NCBI GenBank assembly: GCA_963823665.1
Contig: CAWGMQ010000011.1
Coordinates: forward strand, 640,001-704,000
Origin: an uncultured Planctomycetota bacterium
GTDB taxonomy: Bacteria > Planctomycetota > Planctomycetia > Isosphaerales > Isosphaeraceae
Direction: 5' to 3'
DNA length: 64,000 nt
Shown here: piece by piece, positions 55,367-63,908 of the stretch
Layout of the letters: each line of letters starts with the position of its first letter
How positions within the stretch are numbered: position 1 is the stretch's first letter
The notes under the pieces: generated by a model
Told to the model about the DNA's origin: nothing
The model's input: the letters and a program-made list of their open reading frames with translations, nothing else
Database searches by the model: none
Translations under genes and position numbers: made by a program

Positions 55367-56003
55367 GATTACACTGAACTCCATCGCGCGGAATCCCTAC
55401 CATCCCGACCGCGCTGGGACGACGACCCGACCTACCTGACGCTCCGGCACGAACACCCGCACCGAACAAAGCGCCATCCCGGATCATCCATCACGACGCC
55501 ACAGTATAGGTTGAGATTCCCATGTGAACAAAAAAATCCGGTTCCTAAAACTGCGGTTCCCAAGGAACCCGCATCGATTATGACGATTGGACAACGATCA
55601 GATGCGCCCGATTCGCAATCTCAAGGCATTGCCGCACAAGGCAAGACTCGCCGCGCTATGCTTATCCGGCATAATCCGGCCAACCAGGCCACGCTCGGTA
55701 GGGGTCGGAACGATCGATGGGTTTCGCCCCTCCTCCGATCCGTGTGGACGGGCGGTAATCCCGTATACGGCGCAACAGTCGGTAGCTTTCCCGCGAATAG
55801 GATTGATGGGGCCACCTCGCAGGCTGCTCATTGTCGCCCCTCGCTCCCGCAAAGGGTCATCCCCGTTCCCTGGTTTATCGCGCACGACGACGGCTGCGAG
55901 GACGGCCCACATTGACGACATCGCACAATCCCAGTGAATGAGAACTTCGCGTATCGATCGACTCACCCGCGCCGATTCACGCTCGCTCACGAGCTGGAGA
56001 ATT

Positions 56004-56093
56004 CCAGACACCCAACCAATTGTCACGGTTCCCCGCATCCATTCATTCGCGGCACGCAAGTTCGGTGCAAAACCATGGCCTCTGGTCAAGTCG
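56004..56093 (+). repeat. TIR element copy A (right end missing)
   Basis: CCAGACACCCA...TGTCACGG..CCATTCATTCGCGG..CTCTGGTCA. Confidence 0.8.
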
Positions 56094-56096
56094 CAT

Positions 56097-56629: not shown

Positions 56630-56805
56630 GAGATCCCAGACACCCATCCTTTTGAGATCCCAGACACCCATCCTTTTGTGACGGTCCCCCGCGTTCCATT
56701 CATTCGCGGCTCGCACGTTCGGCGCACAACCACGGTCTCTGGTCATTTCCAGCACGCATCAGGCGAGTGTCCGACGCTCCGCAGACGGTGGGTGTCTGGC
56801 ATCCC
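56630..56805 (+). mobile_element. MITE/REP-like TIR element copy B with a 24-bp tandem duplication of its left end
   Basis: GAGATCCCAGACACCCATCCTTTT x2 ... TGGGTGTCTGGCATCCC (imperfect 17-bp TIR). Confidence 0.75.
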
Positions 56806-56917
56806 AATTCTCGGGCTCAGTCCTCATCCCGTCAGACGATTGACGAGGGCCAGCCCGTCTGCGACAATCGTCGTAGCGATGGCAATCGCCGGACGGACGG
56901 CATCTCAGGAGGTTCCG

Positions 56918-58288
56918 ATGGTGCACAGGATTCTCGCGGCCTCCATCGTGATCGCAACGAGTCCCTGCTTCACCCCGGCCAGGTCGGCGGACGAGCCGAC
57001 GGCAAAGCTACGCTATTCTCTCAAGCCCGGTCGGGAATTCTCCTACCACACTGAAGCAGCCTCGAAGAAAGGTGGAGGGAGAAAGTACATCGTCGATTGG
57101 AAGATCTGGTCCATCGCCCGCGAGCCGGACGGCTCCTGGCGTCTTGTCATCCGGTGTGATCTGTCCACGGAGGATGCATCCGGCCCCAAATCGACCGAAA
57201 AGGAATCAAAGGACACCCTCGTCTGGCATTGCCGGATGCTTGACGACGGGCGGCTCATCGGTGCGACCACGATGGGCACCGTCCGTGACCCCTTCCGTCT
57301 CTTCCCACGGCTCCCCGACGGGCCGAAAGACCTGGAATCCGGATGGGATTCTGCCGGACCGGAGGAGCAGAGTGTAGCCCTCCACCACCGACTGACGCCC
57401 GGAACCAAGGCGAGAAGCGATCTTGTGTCGATCTCGACGTCGGCCGAGGGGCCCGAAGACAAAGTGTACCTCTCGAGTCACTTAATCCGGGCCACTTTCG
57501 ACAAGAGACGAGGTGCAGTAACGCGAGTCGAGACCGAGGATAACAGCGAGCATCTCAGCCCGGGTGCCCTGACGAGGGGCGTCACCGAACTCGTCGCGAT
57601 CAAGGACAGGGGCGACGAATGGGCGGCGACGTTCGGCAAAGAGGCGGGCCGCTACTTTGCTGCCGTCGATGCCTACGACGAGGCGAACAGGAGCGCCATT
57701 CGCGACGCGGCACGATGCAAGAAGATCCTGGCCGACTCGAAGGCGGCACTCGAGGATGCCCGCAACGCGTTGACGACGCCTGTTCTCCGTGAGGCAGCTA
57801 GCCGTAAGCTCGACTCACACGACCGCTCGGCGGCTTACGTATCCGAGGAAACGAGTGCGCGAGCGGAGCGAATCGGCAAGGTGGCGACGGCGTGGGAGGC
57901 TAAGGATATCGACGGCAAGCCCACGAAACTGAGCGACTACCGGGGCAAGGTCGTCGTGATGGACTTCTGGTATCGCAACTGCGGCTGGTGCATTCACGCC
58001 ATGCCCCAGGTCGCCCGACTCTCGGAAGAGTTCCGAAATCAGCCGGTCGCCGTGCTCGGCATGTGCACCGACGAGAAGGAAGCCGACGCCCGGGCGGTGA
58101 TCGATGCGATGGGACTGAAATACCCCACGATCAAGGCAGCAGGCATCCCGGAAAAGTACGGGGTCCAAGGATTCCCGACTCTAATCGTGGTGGATCGGCG
58201 TGGCCTGATCCGCGAGATTCACGTTGGTTATTCTCCCCGCCTCTGCGAGGAACTGTCCGGGGTGATCCGAAAGCTTCTCGCCGAGTAA
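56918..58288 (+). CDS. Exported TlpA/redoxin-domain protein
   Basis: Signal peptide; 'LSDYRGKVVVMDFWYRNCGWC', 'YGVQGFPT'; GGAGG RBS. Confidence 0.88.
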   Translation: MVHRILAASIVIATSPCFTPARSADEPTAKLRYSLKPGREFSYHTEAASKKGGGRKYIVDWKIWSIAREPDGSWRLVIRCDLSTEDASGPKSTEKESKDTLVWHCRMLDDGRLIGATTMGTVRDPFRLFPRLPDGPKDLESGWDSAGPEEQSVALHHRLTPGTKARSDLVSISTSAEGPEDKVYLSSHLIRATFDKRRGAVTRVETEDNSEHLSPGALTRGVTELVAIKDRGDEWAATFGKEAGRYFAAVDAYDEANRSAIRDAARCKKILADSKAALEDARNALTTPVLREAASRKLDSHDRSAAYVSEETSARAERIGKVATAWEAKDIDGKPTKLSDYRGKVVVMDFWYRNCGWCIHAMPQVARLSEEFRNQPVAVLGMCTDEKEADARAVIDAMGLKYPTIKAAGIPEKYGVQGFPTLIVVDRRGLIREIHVGYSPRLCEELSGVIRKLLAE

Positions 58289-58409
58289 CCGCCAGTTGGA
58301 GACGGCGCGCGAATGGGCCGCTGCGCGCCGTGAGAGAGCGGCAGAGTCGTAACGGTCTTGCGAACACCACTGTGACAAATCGCGGGCGAGCCCCGGGGTT
58401 TCCAGGTTT

Positions 58410-58425
58410 CCAGACACCCATCCTT
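58410..58425 (+). repeat. Solo terminus of the TIR element
   Basis: CCAGACACCCATCCTT. Confidence 0.6.
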
Positions 58426-58464
58426 CAGGCAATGGCGCTTTCTCCGTCAGCCAATCACAAAGCG

Positions 58465-58836
58465 TCACACGATCGGTTTCAGGACCATCCGGCCGTACGC
58501 GATGAACGCCATGAGGAGGCCCAACACGGCGCTCAAGATGATGGGCGTGATCTCGCGGTACTTGACGTGCACCCCGATGAACACGAGGCTCTCGATCGCC
58601 AGGACCGTGGCGGCCACCACCGTGAGCGCCGGCCGCCAGCGCAAGGCGCCGGGCACGATCAGCCCGACGATACAGACGAGGCCGAGGATGCCGAGCGCCA
58701 TCCAGGCTTGCCGCGGCAACGCGCCAAATGACGGCACTCCCTCGCTGGCCTTGTCGAACATGAAGACCTTCATGACGCCCGACGCTCCGTACAGTAGCGC
58801 GGCGAGGACCTGTAGGACCCACAACAGGATGTTCAT
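58465..58836 (-). CDS. DoxX-like membrane protein
   Basis: 'MNILLWVLQVLAALLY.ASG.MK', 'FIAYGR'. Confidence 0.85.
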   Translation of the reverse strand: MNILLWVLQVLAALLYGASGVMKVFMFDKASEGVPSFGALPRQAWMALGILGLVCIVGLIVPGALRWRPALTVVAATVLAIESLVFIGVHVKYREITPIILSAVLGLLMAFIAYGRMVLKPIV

Positions 58837-59210
58837 CGTGTGCCTCCGCCCGGTTTCCACATCTGATCGGCTACGTTTCATGGCCATGATGACACGTTGA
58901 AGCTCGAACTGACTAGGTCAGCATGCAGAGCAATTCCTCAATCTCTTGGTTACGGGCGTTGGCGAACGATCTTCCTTCGCTGATCCTCTCGAAGCCGCAG
59001 TTTTCGGGGAGGGAAACAAGGACGCGATTAGTTTATCTATGAATCTGACCCCGGATGGAATCCGCGTGATTAGCTTGTCAAGCCAATTCGTACCCCCGGC
59101 ACAGGCGTGGCGCTTCTCGCAATTTGCCAAAACGCCGACGGTCTAACTGAACCGATCGTTCCCACCCGCTCGTTTATGGTTTACTTGCTGCACCTGCAAC
59201 AAACGACGAG

Positions 59211-59483
59211 TTACGACGATAGCGCGAATCTGATGATGATTGTTTCGCGCGACTCGTGAATTTGGTAGAAAACCCGCAGGATATCCCAGTCCAGGTAACG
59301 AACAGGCGGACTGACTCCGTTTGTGATTGAAGCGCCTGCATGAGGATCTTGCTCGAGGATCGCTTCCACATCGAAAGCAGCATCCGTGTTCCGCTGCCGA
59401 TCACCTTGCGCCGCATCAATCCACAATCGTGCCAAGGCGTTCTCGGCGTTGCCTTCGCCATCGAACTCGACGCGCATGCTCAT
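59211..59483 (-). CDS. Possible RelE/ParE-fold toxin
   Basis: 90 aa; 'AENALARLW...LEQDP..G...LRVFYQI'. Confidence 0.5.
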   Translation of the reverse strand: MSMRVEFDGEGNAENALARLWIDAAQGDRQRNTDAAFDVEAILEQDPHAGASITNGVSPPVRYLDWDILRVFYQIHESRETIIIRFALSS

Positions 59484-59490
59484 TCGCCTA

Positions 59491-59817
59491 TCACCGGATG
59501 AACGTCTTCACCGCATCAACGTCGCCCGCTCTCATTCGATCGAGAAGCTCGCGCGTGCTGCGTGTTGCCGACGGGTCCATCCGTCTCGCGAGTTCGTTCA
59601 CCAAGGCGATTTCCTGATCCGAGGGGGGCACCACTTTTCGCAGGTACCCAACAACGGTTCCGTCATCGGGACGCCGGACAGGAATTGGCCCCGACGACTG
59701 CTCGCCGGCAAGTTTGTCGGTCGCCAGGCGCCAGAGCAAGTACTCGCGCTTCTCGGCCGACATCTTCTCAAGCAGACTGTCCGTTTCTTTTTGGAGCGAG
59801 CTAGTCGTATCCGGCAT
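59491..59817 (-). CDS. Hypothetical protein, possible antitoxin
   Basis: RBS AGGAG; 7 bp upstream of the RelE-like ORF; 'ELARR......STRELLDR'. Confidence 0.55.
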   Translation of the reverse strand: MPDTTSSLQKETDSLLEKMSAEKREYLLWRLATDKLAGEQSSGPIPVRRPDDGTVVGYLRKVVPPSDQEIALVNELARRMDPSATRSTRELLDRMRAGDVDAVKTFIR

Positions 59818-60071
59818 GTCATGTCTCCTGACTCAATCCCCCTCGGACGGCTTCCCATCACCACCGCCCGCGGCGACGTGCCCGATCGAAGAGTCCTTCT
59901 GAAATTGTAAGCAAACGACGAGGCGGACGCAGACTCAGAGGCGTCGGCAATCAACGTGAGGTCGAGCTCGGGGGACACCAACTCGTAGGCAAGGACATTA
60001 CGACGCCGATGTACGGCTGCGAAGGCCTCCGGCGACTTTCCGTCTAACCGTGTCGGGCTATGAGCCGTCAA

Positions 60072-60446
60072 TCACCACGGTTCGCCATTGCCGAATGACC
60101 AGTCCTCGCGGTCGACGAAGACCAGGCTGATGAAGACGTCCTCACGGCGCACGCCGAGCCGGCGGTTCAGTTCGTCGGCCATCTGCCGGAAGAAGGCACG
60201 CTTCTGCTCCTCGGTGTTTCCGACGGTGCTGGTCACCTGGATGTAGATGAGGTCAGGCGTTCGCTTGATGTCGAGAAAGTTCGGATCGAACACGAAATTC
60301 TCAGGTTTATGCTCGCCGATGATCATGAAGCGGTCGCCATCCGGCGCCTTCAGGATCCCGACAATCCCCTCGTACACGACGTCGGCCACAGTGGCGCGAT
60401 ACTCGGGGGGTTTTCCTTGAGCCAGATCGATGCGTGCAAACGGCAT
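60072..60446 (-). CDS. Tautomerase family protein
   Basis: Pro at position 2; 'DRF', 'REDWSFGNG'. Confidence 0.9.
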   Translation of the reverse strand: MPFARIDLAQGKPPEYRATVADVVYEGIVGILKAPDGDRFMIIGEHKPENFVFDPNFLDIKRTPDLIYIQVTSTVGNTEEQKRAFFRQMADELNRRLGVRREDVFISLVFVDREDWSFGNGEPW

Positions 60447-60456
60447 AACAATCTCC

Positions 60457-61182
60457 TTAGCTCGCCGTCATCCCATTGACGAAGCTCTTCACGAGCCTCG
60501 CCGCAATGGCCGGCGCGGTTTGAAGGAGCAGGTGCGGGCTTTCCACGTCTGCGACTTGTATATCAGGCCTTGACCGCAAAATCTCCTGTGACACCCGTGC
60601 TGGAACCAGGCGATCGCGGGTCGCGCGCTAGTAGAGCACGGGCACTCGAACGTCGGCGAGCCGCGCCGTCACGTCGACGTCAATGATCGAAGTCAAGCGA
60701 GCTCGAAACGCGTCGGCGGCGATTTGAGCGAGAACTTGAGCGATGGCGTTCTCGAGCCGCGGCGTCGAAAACCGCCCCAGCAGGAACCAGCAGGGAAGAG
60801 CGGCGGGGATGCGCGTCGGCACGAACGGCACGAGCCGACGTAACCACGAGAGCGCCGGTCGCGGGTTCCGCGCAAACGAGCAGCACAAGACCAGGCCGAT
60901 GAGCTCAGGCGGAGCGGACGCGGCGATCGAAATGGCGATCGGGCCGGAGTACGATTCGCCGAGAAGAACGAACGGCCGACCGATCGGCAGCCTCGTGCGG
61001 GCGACCGCCTCGTGGCCGGCGTAGTCCATCGGTCTATCGTTGGGATAAGTCACCACGATCGCCTCGAGCTCCGGGTCCAAAGCGGCCACGAAATCTGTGA
61101 GCTCGAGGCCGGTGCCGTCCATTCCGGGTAGGATTACGATGGTGACCACGTGCTTGAACGGAGAGCTGTTAGCAAGGGGCAC
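60457..61182 (-). CDS. Alpha/beta hydrolase with an in-frame TAG at 60628-60630
   Basis: 'LPGMDGTG', 'GESYSG'; the frame continues past the TAG as RATRDRLVP...SPHLLLQ (putative catalytic Asp and His) to TAA 60457. Confidence 0.85.
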
Positions 61183-61412: not shown

Positions 61413-61562
61413 CCCGTCGCCGAAGGGTCACACTAGCCTGACGACCCGCTTAGAATCAGCAGTAATCATACTCGAAGCTATGCTACCCACAAGAACTACG
61501 AGCAGGGCGGCGTTGAAAACAGAGAAGCCAGACACCCAATCTCCGGTTCCGAGGAGGAGCCA

Positions 61563-61714
61563 GGAAATCCAGACACCCATCCTTTGTCTCACGGCCCCCG
61601 CACCCATTCATTCGCGGCACGCAAGTTCGGCGCAAAACCACGGCCTCTGGTCATTTCGAACACGCAGAAGGCCAGTGCCCAACGCTCGGCAAACGGTGGG
61701 TGTCTGACATCTCC
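61563..61714 (+). mobile_element. TIR element copy D (extra solo end at 61528)
   Basis: CCAGACACCCA...CCATTCATTCGCGG...TGGGTGTCTGACATCTCC. Confidence 0.75.
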
Positions 61715-62097: not shown

Positions 62098-62685
62098 TTG
62101 AGAGGATACCAAGTGTTGCTCCGCGGGGCTCTTTTCTGTTCGATGGTCGTTGGCGTCATCGCAGCGACGCCGGCCAGAGCCGATTGGCTCAATTTCAACC
62201 CGTTTTACGACCTGAAGGTCGTCGCCGATGATGTCCTGGAAGGGCTAATCGATTTGGGCGGCCCCCATGCGCTGCCGCCCAACTTTAACAACGTGAACGA
62301 TTCGTCGTATATTCCCGACGTCGTAACGCCGTATATCGCGGCCGACGGCAGCGTGTGGGCGGGCTCCAATCCGCAGGGGAGCCAATTCATCGGTCTCGCC
62401 ACGGTTATTCATGCCCAGAATGGAATGGCCTGGTGGGCCTGGGGCTCACTGCGGCACCGAGCGCCGCAATTTGATTTGTCTGGGTATCTGCCGATAAAGA
62501 CGCAGATCATCGGCAATCTCCACGTGACCTTCGTGCGGACCGCGTCGGGGCAGTGGTGGGCCACGTGGAAAAACCCGTTCAACGGCTTCGTCGAGTACAC
62601 GCGTTTTCAGACTGTCTCGGTCACCTTCACGCACATCGTTCTGCGGGAGGTGGTGAACGGACAGTTTTTCACACTGCCCAATTAA
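62098..62685 (+). CDS. Hypothetical exported protein
   Basis: Signal-like '...ATPARA|D'; start uncertain. Confidence 0.6.
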   Translation: MRGYQVLLRGALFCSMVVGVIAATPARADWLNFNPFYDLKVVADDVLEGLIDLGGPHALPPNFNNVNDSSYIPDVVTPYIAADGSVWAGSNPQGSQFIGLATVIHAQNGMAWWAWGSLRHRAPQFDLSGYLPIKTQIIGNLHVTFVRTASGQWWATWKNPFNGFVEYTRFQTVSVTFTHIVLREVVNGQFFTLPN

Positions 62686-63023
62686 GGCGTGACCCGACGG
62701 TGGACGCAGGACATTGCAAGGAATTCGACCTTTGAATGATCCTGCGTCTCCGCATCTCGTCGCCAAACGGAGGACGCCGGGAAAAACCCCGACCTCGTCA
62801 GATCGCCCTGGAAAACGTTTCTAGCGGCGAGATAGGGCAAAGTATGCAAGGACGCCAACGCTTCTGTAATGACCGTTTCCTGGGCAAATGACAATCGTGG
62901 TGTTTTTTACCTGTCCGGGACGGAAGATCAGATGGCCTTTCGTCCTGTCAAACGAATCTGAATCTTCCTTGCCTCCACCTCGGCATCTTCCTCCCTGCGG
63001 ATGAAATACATTTCGGTCGTGTC

Positions 63024-63908
63024 GGGATCTCAGACATTGCGCCAGGAAGCTCGGATTAGGAGGATCATCTCAAATGTGAAACTTTTTAGTGGAACCCTGC
63101 GGGTAACCAATCCCGCCCGGCAGAGCCGGGCCAGCAGCCGGAAGTGAGTCTTGCGTGGGGAGAGGCGACTCTCACTGCGAAGCGTAGACAGCGAGATCAA
63201 ACGCTGTGAGATTGAGCCTCGAAATTTCCCTCTTTGTTCTGAGCCCTCGTCCTTGTCTGACGCGGGGGCCGAGCCGGGCATTAGCGACACCTGGACCCAC
63301 TAGCGTGCCTGGTCAGACCGGGGTCGGAGAACATGGCGAATGATCAGTAGGGTTCCCCGGGAACTTGGGAGACCTTGTCGTCTCCATCGTGACGGCCGGC
63401 TGGAGCTCCGGCTTACCAACTCCAGGTTGATCCACAGCTCCATCCCGAGCTGGTGGGGACGAACGATGGTATCGCCAAGCGAAGGAAACGAAGCGCGGCG
63501 AAATGGACGGCAAGGAGTCGGAGTGCCCCATAGTAGTGTTGAAGCGGGGGAACGGCCCTCCGGACCCTGTGGAGCGAAGGGGGCACCGCGTTGTGGATGG
63601 GAAGTTGGAACCACGCTGAGGACACCGTGCCTCACCAGCGTGTCACCGCGAAACGACCTGGTCGTGTGAGGGACAGTGATTCCCCAACGTGACGAGCCGG
63701 ATGCCTCTTCGACGGGCAAGTCCGGATCTGTGGGGGGCCTGGGTGGAAGACCACCCAGGTCTACCCGGCCCCATCCTTTTGTCACGGTCCCCCGGATCCA
63801 TTCATTCGCGGCTCGCACGTTCCGCGCAAATCCACCGCCTCTGGTCAAATCGAATACGCACAAGGCGAGTGCCCGACGCTCGGCAAACGGTGGGTCTCTG
63901 ACATCTCC
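63024..63908 (+). mobile_element. TIR element copy E, interrupted by the intron
   Basis: GGGATCTCAGACA | CCCATCCTTTTGTCACGG...TGGGTCTCTGACATCTCC. Confidence 0.8.
63037..63769 (+). ncRNA. ORF-less group II intron (733 nt)
   Basis: 5' TTGCG; domain V GAGCCGGATGCC..GGCAAGTCCGGATC (63694-63728); domain VI hairpin with bulged A, ending CTACCCGGC; EBS1 TGTCTG and EBS2 AGATC pair with the 5' exon; no RT ORF. Confidence 0.9.

Follow-up and report, generated by a model that had tools for sequence, protein, structure and literature searches.

A group II intron without an open reading frame in the end motif of a REPIN-like repeat of a planctomycete genome

The stretch of DNA analysed here (the window) comprises 64,000 nucleotides (nt) of the genome of an uncultured member of the Planctomycetota (C11:640001-704000 of a 16.46-Mb assembly in 12 contigs), and the element in question is a 733-nt group II intron, devoid of an open reading frame (ORF), which lies exactly in the end motif of a multicopy repeat of about 150 nt. 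A first-pass annotation, made from the letters of the window alone, had proposed such an intron at this place, with non-canonical boundaries and a mere stub in domain IV, and had recommended a check with covariance models of group II introns. The parts of the locus are as follows (window coordinates; EBS and IBS, exon-binding and intron-binding site; RT, reverse transcriptase).

63024..63036, + strand: 5′ exon, the left end motif of the repeat (GGGATCTCAGACA), with IBS1 CAGACA at 63031-63036 and GATCT at 63026-63030
63037..63769, + strand: group II intron of family A (733 nt, ORF-less), its ends being 5′-UUGCG...GGC-3′, delimited by Rfam models and by comparison with an empty site
63107..63333, + strand: domain I core, Rfam RF02005 (group-II-D1D4-6), model positions 1-225 of 225
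63188..63207, + strand: hairpin ACAGCG/CGCTGT with loop AGATCAAA, the EBS2 of the first-pass annotation, unsupported by covariation
63254..63259, + strand: EBS1 TGTCTG, in the loop of the hairpin 63247-63267, pairing at six of six bases with CAGACA
63569..63619, + strand: domain IV stub, what is left of the beginning of an RT frame (VERRGHRVVDGKLEPR followed by a stop)
63694..63727, + strand: domain V, with AGC triad and 2-nt bulge; all predicted domain V pairs are standard in the window copy
63730..63769, + strand: domain VI, whose bulged A (63763) stands 6 nt from the 3′ end; the helix is kept by compensatory changes in 11 introns
63770..63908, + strand: 3′ exon, the remainder of the REPIN-like repeat of about 150 nt, with the right end motif GGTGGGTCTCTGACATCTCC at 63889-63908

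The junctions read ...GGGATCTCAGACA/TTGCGCCAGG...CTACCCGGC/CCCATCCTTTTGTCACGG..., a slash marking each junction (at greater length, the intron's 3′ end is GGTCTACCCGGC). When 63037-63769 is excised the flanks rejoin as CAGACACCCATCCTTTTGTCACGG, which restores the end motif of the repeat and differs by one mismatch from an empty copy at 56661-56684 (CAGACACCCATCCTTTTGTGACGG); the portion of the repeat that lies in the 3′ exon shares 85% identity with the reference copy across positions 16-152. Since the first and last bases of the intron (T and C) differ from the exon bases adjoining them (C and A), the boundaries are fixed and cannot slide. The canonical 5′-GUGYG...AY-3′ is not found at them; instead the empty site fixes UUGCG...GGC, and in the lineage at large the TTGCG start is kept in 13 of 14 aligned rows and the CCCGGC end in 9 of 11. 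The non-canonical boundaries are real and conserved in the lineage.

The ribozyme itself is recognised by the Rfam models. RF02005 matches 63107-63333 of the + strand over its full length with 108.5 bits (gathering score 49, E 9e-30), and RF00029, the model of domains V and VI, matches 63692-63769 at a permissive threshold and stops exactly on the inferred 3′ end. In a consensus of domains V and VI built from 11 introns of the lineage, 11 of the 27 predicted pairs show compensatory changes and the window copy breaks none, while the AGC triad, the domain V bulge and the bulged A of domain VI are retained throughout; judged by these substitutions, the ribozyme is under selection. No RT ORF was found inside the intron, the longest + strand ORF having 109 aa. 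What domain IV does hold is a remnant of 16 codons (VERRGHRVVDGKLEPR and a stop) that resembles the N-terminus of the RT encoded by the related family C (VEGRRRHVTQPLEGNM), and the same stub occurs in family B. The exact insertion, the lack of an RT ORF, the unusual ends and the domain IV stub were thus all correctly read in the first-pass annotation.

A search of the genome with the window intron returned 45 matches, which fall into three families. Family A is 80-100% identical to the window intron, and the window copy is its only full-length, uninterrupted member: two others are interrupted in domain VI, one is cut at nt 663 and the remainder are fragments. Family B consists of 14 ORF-less copies of about 732 nt, 72% identical to the window intron. 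Family C comprises six RT-encoding copies of 2011 nt (70% identity), which carry in domain IV a 454-aa RT/maturase (TIGR04416, 326.6 bits, cut-off 300) with RVT_1 as its only Pfam domain and without an endonuclease domain; two copies have complete 454-aa frames, and the frames of the others are shortened or split. Neither matches to Protein Data Bank (PDB) sequences nor the Rfam paper give a class assignment for this RT. ORF-less copies thus outnumber RT-encoding ones in this genome. Four of the family B copies are 100% identical over 733 nt, yet sit in repeat copies that differ from one another and have unrelated 3′ flanks; by this identity, family B is recently active. Several near-identical ORF-less copies at matching sites are therefore a feature of family B and not of family A, in which one copy is intact.

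Two observations bear on the ancestry of these families. Family B is 95% identical to family C over nt 1-546, and its domain IV stub is about 80% identical to that of family A and unalignable to family C; this suggests a mosaic that may have arisen by recombination or template switching between intron families. In addition, a 5′-truncated family A intron at L096 (C5:1646200-1648600, - strand) carries the C-terminal part of an RT, about 230 residues in which the YADD motif is kept and which share 57% identity with the RT of family C; behind it lie domains V and VI that are 98% identical to those of the window intron.

The position of the introns in the motif is uniform. All 14 family B and all six family C copies come after ...TGGGTGTCT (in one case ...TGGGTGTCC) and begin with TTGCGTC, and the 13 family B 3′ ends that could be seen all read GACCCGGC, followed by G (11 copies) or A (two copies); an independent pattern count gave 22 junctions of the B/C type. 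Where no intron interrupts it, this sequence reads TGGGTGTCT/GRCATCC and forms the right end of the repeat. The body of the repeat adjoins 10 of the 14 family B copies, eight of which lie in the right end, and in the remaining two (L012 and L015), which have the opposite orientation, the intron is located within the left end's reverse complement. Copies of family A are preceded by GGGAWKYCAGACA, a sequence present at either end of the repeat in forms of the GGGATTCCAGACA type and the GGGATGTCAGACA type (L001, L004, L005, L006, L029, L090, L091 and L092). Both repeat ends serve as intron sites, as had been expected of each copy of the element, and tabulating the flanks of the other copies, a proposed check, revealed that essentially all copies that have a 5′ end sit at the end motif.

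Exon recognition was examined in an alignment of the 5′ 330 nt of introns from this genome and 10 related ones. The loop of the TGTCTG hairpin, which is also paired by the Rfam model, covaries with the last six exon bases in nine distinct combinations. Family A combines TGTCTG with CAGACA (L001, L004 with one loop mismatch, L005, L006, L029 and L072 of G001), all 20 copies of families B and C combine AGACAC with GTGTCT (GTGTCC at the end of one exon), and L003 combines GGACGC with GCGTCC. In the relatives we found TGTCAG/CTGACA (four copies), TGCCTG/CAGGCA, GGTCAG/CTGACC (two copies) and AGGGCG/CGCCCT, as well as the imperfect combinations CGTTTT/AAAGCG (one wobble) and GGACAT/ACGTCC (five of six bases). 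In a column scan the true assignment gave 5.15 of 6 pairs at EBS1, a value lowered by two rows that stand one base off register, against 4.62 for the best of 200 shuffles, none of which reached the observed value. Going by this covariation, the six-base EBS1-IBS1 pairing is the recognised element, in agreement with the pairing of TGTCTG and CAGACA that had been proposed for the window copy.

The same cannot be said of the second pairing of the first-pass annotation, in which AGATC in the loop at 63188-63207 acted as EBS2 on GATCT at 63026-63030. The complementarity exists in the window copy, and functional pairing is unsupported by covariation: of 14 aligned rows, 6 retain the loop (GAGATCAAA) unaltered or with a single change although they have five different 5′ exons, and since it is kept in relatives whose exons differ, it does not appear to act like an exon-binding site. 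The GATCT of the window copy is, moreover, foreign to the consensus of the repeat, GGGATTC at this place, and belongs to the remnant of a recombinase gene which the outer bases of the 5′ exon (63024..63036) continue.

The repeat that receives the introns is about 150 nt long, with ends GGGATTCCAGACACCCATCC ... GGTGGGTGTCTGACATCCC in 30 aligned copies (GGGATTCCAGACACCCATCC being the consensus left end), and is built of two inverted copies of the motif per unit. At least 44 copies of the unit are present in the genome. The right-end 18-mer GGTGGGTGTCTGRCATCC was counted at 121 sites and the left-end 15-mer at 63 sites, the reversed control pattern giving none in either case. Within the window, CCAGACACCCA with at most one mismatch occurs nine times where 0.85 would be expected, a number reached by none of 100 shuffles; the further candidate sites noted near the intron do exist. 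The uninterrupted, partial and solo copies in the window are these.

56652..56810, + strand: reference copy of the repeat, without an intron (empty site); ahead of it, at 56630-56653, its left end is duplicated in tandem (24 nt)
61566..61714, + strand: second uninterrupted copy
56001..56094, + strand: partial copy, left part only, 84% identical over positions 6-94
58404..58427, + strand: solo end motif TTTCCAGACACCCATCCTTC
61522-61545: further solo end motif

No target-site duplication was found at the repeat ends among the 30 aligned copies, and a single motif forms no evident hairpin-forming palindrome. The repeat was also considered as a structured RNA and this was rejected, RNAalifold on 21 intact copies giving a weak consensus on both strands (-16 and -21 kcal/mol) and Rfam nothing. 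Short tandem duplications of the end motif (8-33 nt) are common (window 56630-56677, L050, L032, L016/L017 and, upstream of the transposase gene described below, L069 and L070); examples are the 24-nt doublet of the window, the motif in triplicate in L050 and the tandem order intron-site-intron in L016/L017.

What links the repeat to a known kind of element is a gene of about 410 aa that is flanked, in inverted orientation, by variants of the core motif, of which one to four stand in tandem upstream and a single one stands downstream (L069, L070 and L071). Its product matches the C-terminal half of the NCBIfam model NF047646, ‘REP-associated tyrosine transposase’ (REP, repetitive extragenic palindrome), with E 3e-8 and 33.6 bits (cut-off 80), and one source names its homologues ‘REP element-mobilizing transposase RayT’. 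Residues H85, H87 and Y198 are invariant in 16 sequences of the protein, and the ten best fold matches of its predicted structure are all IS200/IS605 transposases, at weak E values (0.07-0.23, none at or below 0.001). The gene has 51 matches in the genome, three of them full-length. From these sequence and model matches the gene looks like a RayT/IS200-like HUH transposase, and since the end motif of the repeat also flanks this gene in inverted orientation, we take the repeat to be REPIN-like and to derive from a RayT/IS200-like element with many copies. The earlier label, miniature inverted-repeat transposable element (MITE), is right in so far as the element is multicopy, non-autonomous and bounded by a terminal inverted repeat; REPIN-like, with a tie to a RayT-like transposase, describes it better.

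Taken together, the intron of the window is very probably a non-autonomous group II intron which belongs to a lineage with an RT devoid of an endonuclease domain and which retrohomed into the REPIN-like end motif with the help of an RT acting in trans. Under this reading a family C intron would provide the RT/maturase, and ORF-less RNAs still able to bind it would be spliced; the spliced RNA would then reverse-splice into DNA where EBS1 meets its six bases in the end motif, and RT copying would follow. By likeness to other introns without an endonuclease, insertion may take place into single-stranded DNA at replication forks, and the repeat in its turn would be mobilised by the RayT-like protein. 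The action in trans is something we infer, and the RT-encoding sibling with the same EBS that the first-pass annotation advised looking for was found in part: RT-encoding siblings are present in the genome, but the intact ones carry a different EBS1 (AGACAC) and enter the neighbouring position of the same motif. Because the intact RTs belong to these siblings and the RT of its own subfamily is a truncated relic, the window copy may no longer move. That it is still mobile appears doubtful to us; that it is the last intact member of a decaying subfamily is rather probable.

Several observations weigh against this interpretation or parts of it. On the side of the ribozyme, domain I of the window intron scores lower than that of its siblings (108 versus 138 bits), and the RF00029 score of 32.4 bits lies under the gathering score of 40; since no family B or C copy passes the latter model either, the lineage as a whole scores low on it. 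On the side of recognition, three copies do not fit the EBS1 pairing, namely L002 (TGTCTG with an exon ending ...GCCATCCC), whose 5′ junction is rearranged, L028, a diverged fragment, and L073, which pairs at four of six bases. When the columns of 13 introns were scanned for EBS2, the highest value was 3.91 of 6 pairs, in a poorly aligned stretch, against a shuffled maximum of 3.69, and a candidate EBS3 column (G with a 3′ exon starting in C, U in family B) failed on L074; neither site could be located. With regard to mobility, one of about 20 family A pieces is intact, and the copies are only 89-96% identical to one another, which makes the family older; L096 is the only trace of an RT of its own, it is 5′-truncated, and cross-mobilisation by family C is uncertain. 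As for the transposase, the gene of about 410 aa gave no Pfam match (Y1_Tnp included) and no match to PDB sequences, its NF047646 match is below threshold, and its predicted structure is of low confidence (mean predicted local distance difference test score, pLDDT, 50.6). Finally, none of the 23 public sequencing runs listed contains half of the words of the locus.

A different second determinant has to be considered in the first place. Recognition could resemble that of class C introns, with a DNA hairpin upstream and a short pairing, the REP palindrome standing in for IBS2. The covariation scan yields no EBS2, and in three related genomes the intron directly follows the 3′ arm of a strong hairpin (L076, -20.7 kcal/mol; L080, -16.4 kcal/mol; L073); in G017 the palindrome itself recurs, at 16 sites against 0 for the control, and each of the three 5′ intron ends detected in that genome lies against it. 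Because introns abut hairpins in these three genomes, including the repeat of G017, a hairpin-type second determinant is a live alternative. In the genome studied here, however, about 110 nt lie between the two motif copies, the 70-nt stretch preceding the window intron folds weakly (-5.6 kcal/mol), several relatives have no upstream hairpin, and an IBS1 of 6 bp exceeds the 3-4 bp described for class C in the part of PMC7923331 that deals with them. On balance we consider class C-like recognition unlikely, though well worth keeping in view.

Far less probable is that the repeats are attC-like sites of an integron-type cassette array (a cluster of attC sites lacking integron-integrases, CALIN) and the intron an attC-targeting one like those of the IIC-attC lineage. 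The repeats are clustered, mostly in one orientation, at intervals of 0.6-5 kb with small unrelated genes between them (AhpC/TSA-like, DoxX, tautomerase, hydrolase), and an intron of class IIB that begins with UUGCG is on record immediately behind an attC site (PMC7923331, in its account of that intron). No integron integrase was found, however: the best TIGR02249 match reaches 112.6 bits (cut-off 265), lies on another contig and has similar counterparts in all 14 control genomes. The end motifs are, by inspection, unlike RYYYAAC/GTTRRRY, the genes between repeats lie in both orientations, the motif flanks a RayT-like transposase gene, and for the truncated recombinase next to the intron there is a single intact homologue, which lies elsewhere in the genome and not at the arrays.

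A similarly slim chance is left to a scenario without homing, in which units of intron plus repeat spread jointly, either as duplicated segments or through transposition of the repeat. Introns and repeats do share clusters, and tandem arrangements occur (L016/L017), but identical introns sit in differing repeat copies with unrelated 3′ flanks, most repeat copies are empty (121 plus 63 motif sites versus some 35 intron junctions), three subfamilies with different EBS1 occupy the positions that match them, and introns are also found in solo motifs and in a motif beside the transposase gene (L021). That the junctions are assembly artefacts, as might be feared in so large a genome with many near-identical repeats and no read set of the organism to set against the assembly, is a negligible prospect, since the same exact junction type appears at more than 30 loci with different flanks, recurs in other genomes and restores the empty site to the base on both sides.

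With retrohoming by EBS1 pairing as the preferred reading, its relation to other organisms can be outlined. The intron lineage was found in 15 of the 40 related genomes searched, and in 12 of the 24 that belong to the same family; ORF-less forms that align over their full length are present in four other genomes that represent four different genera. The genome of the same genus yielded no family A intron with an RT, where L087 is a 5′-truncated, ORF-less piece. Four of the sequencing runs were examined and gave no cover over the flanks at 62600-63069; contigs 88-99% like parts of the intron and not its flanks (X1, X2, X13 and X15) came from soil metagenomes and from libraries labelled as metatranscriptomes, and such likeness implies that relatives of the intron lineage live in soils. 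One DNA contig of 156 nt is identical over 63753-63908, of which 17 nt lie inside the intron.

A wider reading, quite possible and put forward as tentative, is that the whole lineage (UUGCG...GGC, D1D4-6) has specialised on REP-like repeats of RayT/IS200-type transposases across the planctomycete family, EBS1 being re-tuned to the repeat of each genome. Long-lived ORF-less forms sharing one domain IV stub would persist across genera, and the hairpin of the repeat or its inverted partner would replace IBS2.

The families of this genome also display features of their own. Seven introns of families A, B and C harbour in their domain VI a second group II intron, unrelated to its hosts, which has GUGGGAR on one side and CC on the other (L063:10707-13126, that is C11:558706-561125, L062:5781-8202 and five further loci). 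It is about 2420 nt long, matches RF02012 (D1D4-7, 105.5 bits) and RF00029 (63.4 bits), starts with UCGCG, ends with CCCGGC and encodes an RT with RVT_N and RVT_1, all seven genomic copies of which lie inside host introns. Six family A fragments (L090, L091, L092, L093, L029 and L027) consist of a repeat-type 5′ exon and intron nt 1-112 only; all break at one base (...GCCGGAAGCGAG/) and continue into unrelated DNA, as happens at no fewer than four places in G001. Such a uniform loss of the 3′ part is not what incomplete reverse transcription would yield. The family A copy L002 (C6:913071-913779) is located 33 nt past a family C intron and has a canonical 3′ junction (CCCGGC/CCCATCC), its first intron base being missing after the exon ...TGCCATCCC.

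Upstream of the intron lies the end of a broken gene, and further small genes occupy the spaces between the repeats.

62926..63030, - strand: remnant of a tyrosine-recombinase gene, its last 33 codons or so (DTTEMYFIRREEDAEVEARKIQIRLTGRKAI, then the stop), cut off at the repeat and intron

An intact recombinase of 477 aa in a genome of the same genus ends ...GHADIRTTEVYFIRKEEDAEVAARKIQIRLTGRNSE before its stop, and the intact copy elsewhere in the present genome, away from the arrays, is 83% identical. At the orthologous site of the same-genus genome the recombinase remnant is all that can be aligned (70%), and for this reason the insertion cannot be dated. The genes between the repeats are unrelated to one another and lie in both orientations (window 56678-61182 and L061); they encode an AhpC/TSA-like domain, a DoxX-like protein, a tautomerase, a fragment of an alpha/beta hydrolase and an M54-like peptidase, several ORFs being unmatched.

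Among known systems, as far as the cited passages describe them, the closest is that of TeI3 (ORF-less) and TeI4 (RT-encoding) of Thermosynechococcus elongatus (Mohr, Ghanem and Lambowitz 2010, PMC2882425). There, as here, introns have become ORF-less by deletion in domain IV with remnants of the RT frame kept, ORF-less copies outnumber RT-encoding ones, families are distinguished by their EBS at matching sites, and twintrons occur. Mobilisation by the RT of a sibling was assayed for TeI3/TeI4, while in the planctomycete introns mobilisation in trans is deduced. Unlike TeI3/TeI4, the planctomycete introns have as their sites the end motif of another mobile element rather than scattered unique sites, have UUGCG...GGC boundaries, and include ORF-less forms with the same stub in several genera. 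Class C introns, which target terminators and attC sites (Zimmerly and Semper 2015, PMC4424553), and UHB.I2, an intron of class IIB1 which is the single reported case of a 5′-UUGCG start and which follows an attC site without a gap (Sonbol and Siam 2021, PMC7923331), share with them a harmless repeated landing site and an RT without an endonuclease domain, and UHB.I2 also the UUGCG start, its own position being just past a hairpin-forming site. The planctomycete introns differ from these attC-associated ones in a target tied to a RayT-like transposase and not to an integrase, in a 6-bp EBS1 supported by covariation and in their match to the Rfam model D1D4-6.

REPs are known as landing sites as well. 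Insertion sequences (IS) that insert specifically in REPs include ISPa11, ISPpu9, ISPpu10 and IS1397 (Tobes and Pareja 2006, PMC1525189), and a table in the same paper lists two of nine group II intron copies of Pseudomonas putida KT2440 as REP-associated. Like these IS, the planctomycete introns are mobile elements with a REP-type specific insertion site; unlike them, since the IS are DNA transposons that rely on recognition by protein, they use an RNA guide, and essentially all copies that have a 5′ end sit at the motif. The repeat resembles the REPIN/RAYT systems (Bertels and Rainey 2011, PMC3116915; PMC3337134), going by the features given there, in that two inverted short motifs and a spacer make up a small non-autonomous unit with many extragenic copies, and in that the same motif flanks a Y1 HUH transposase gene, assigned here from weak matches. 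It departs from them in a transposase that is multicopy and often broken, in a long (about 110 nt), conserved spacer, in a single motif that is not an evident hairpin and in the missing Y1_Tnp match. In the literature searched we found no description of group II introns homing into REP or REPIN sequences by base pairing, the table entry on P. putida coming nearest to it. The strategy is a known one; new are a REP/REPIN-type target read by RNA pairing with natural covariation, the lineage-wide UUGCG...GGC boundaries and the ORF-less forms in several genera.

For the biology of the lineage the finding means that one parasite uses another parasite as its landing site. The repeat offers more than 100 harmless sites, which may explain the persistence of a non-autonomous ribozyme. 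The nine natural EBS1/IBS1 combinations form a ready series for studying how introns are re-targeted, and the conserved UUGCG...GGC implies that the usual splice-site consensus is dispensable across a whole lineage. If the wider reading is true, transposase repeat, intron and second intron in domain VI would make up a nest of three levels, all dependent on single-stranded DNA at replication forks.

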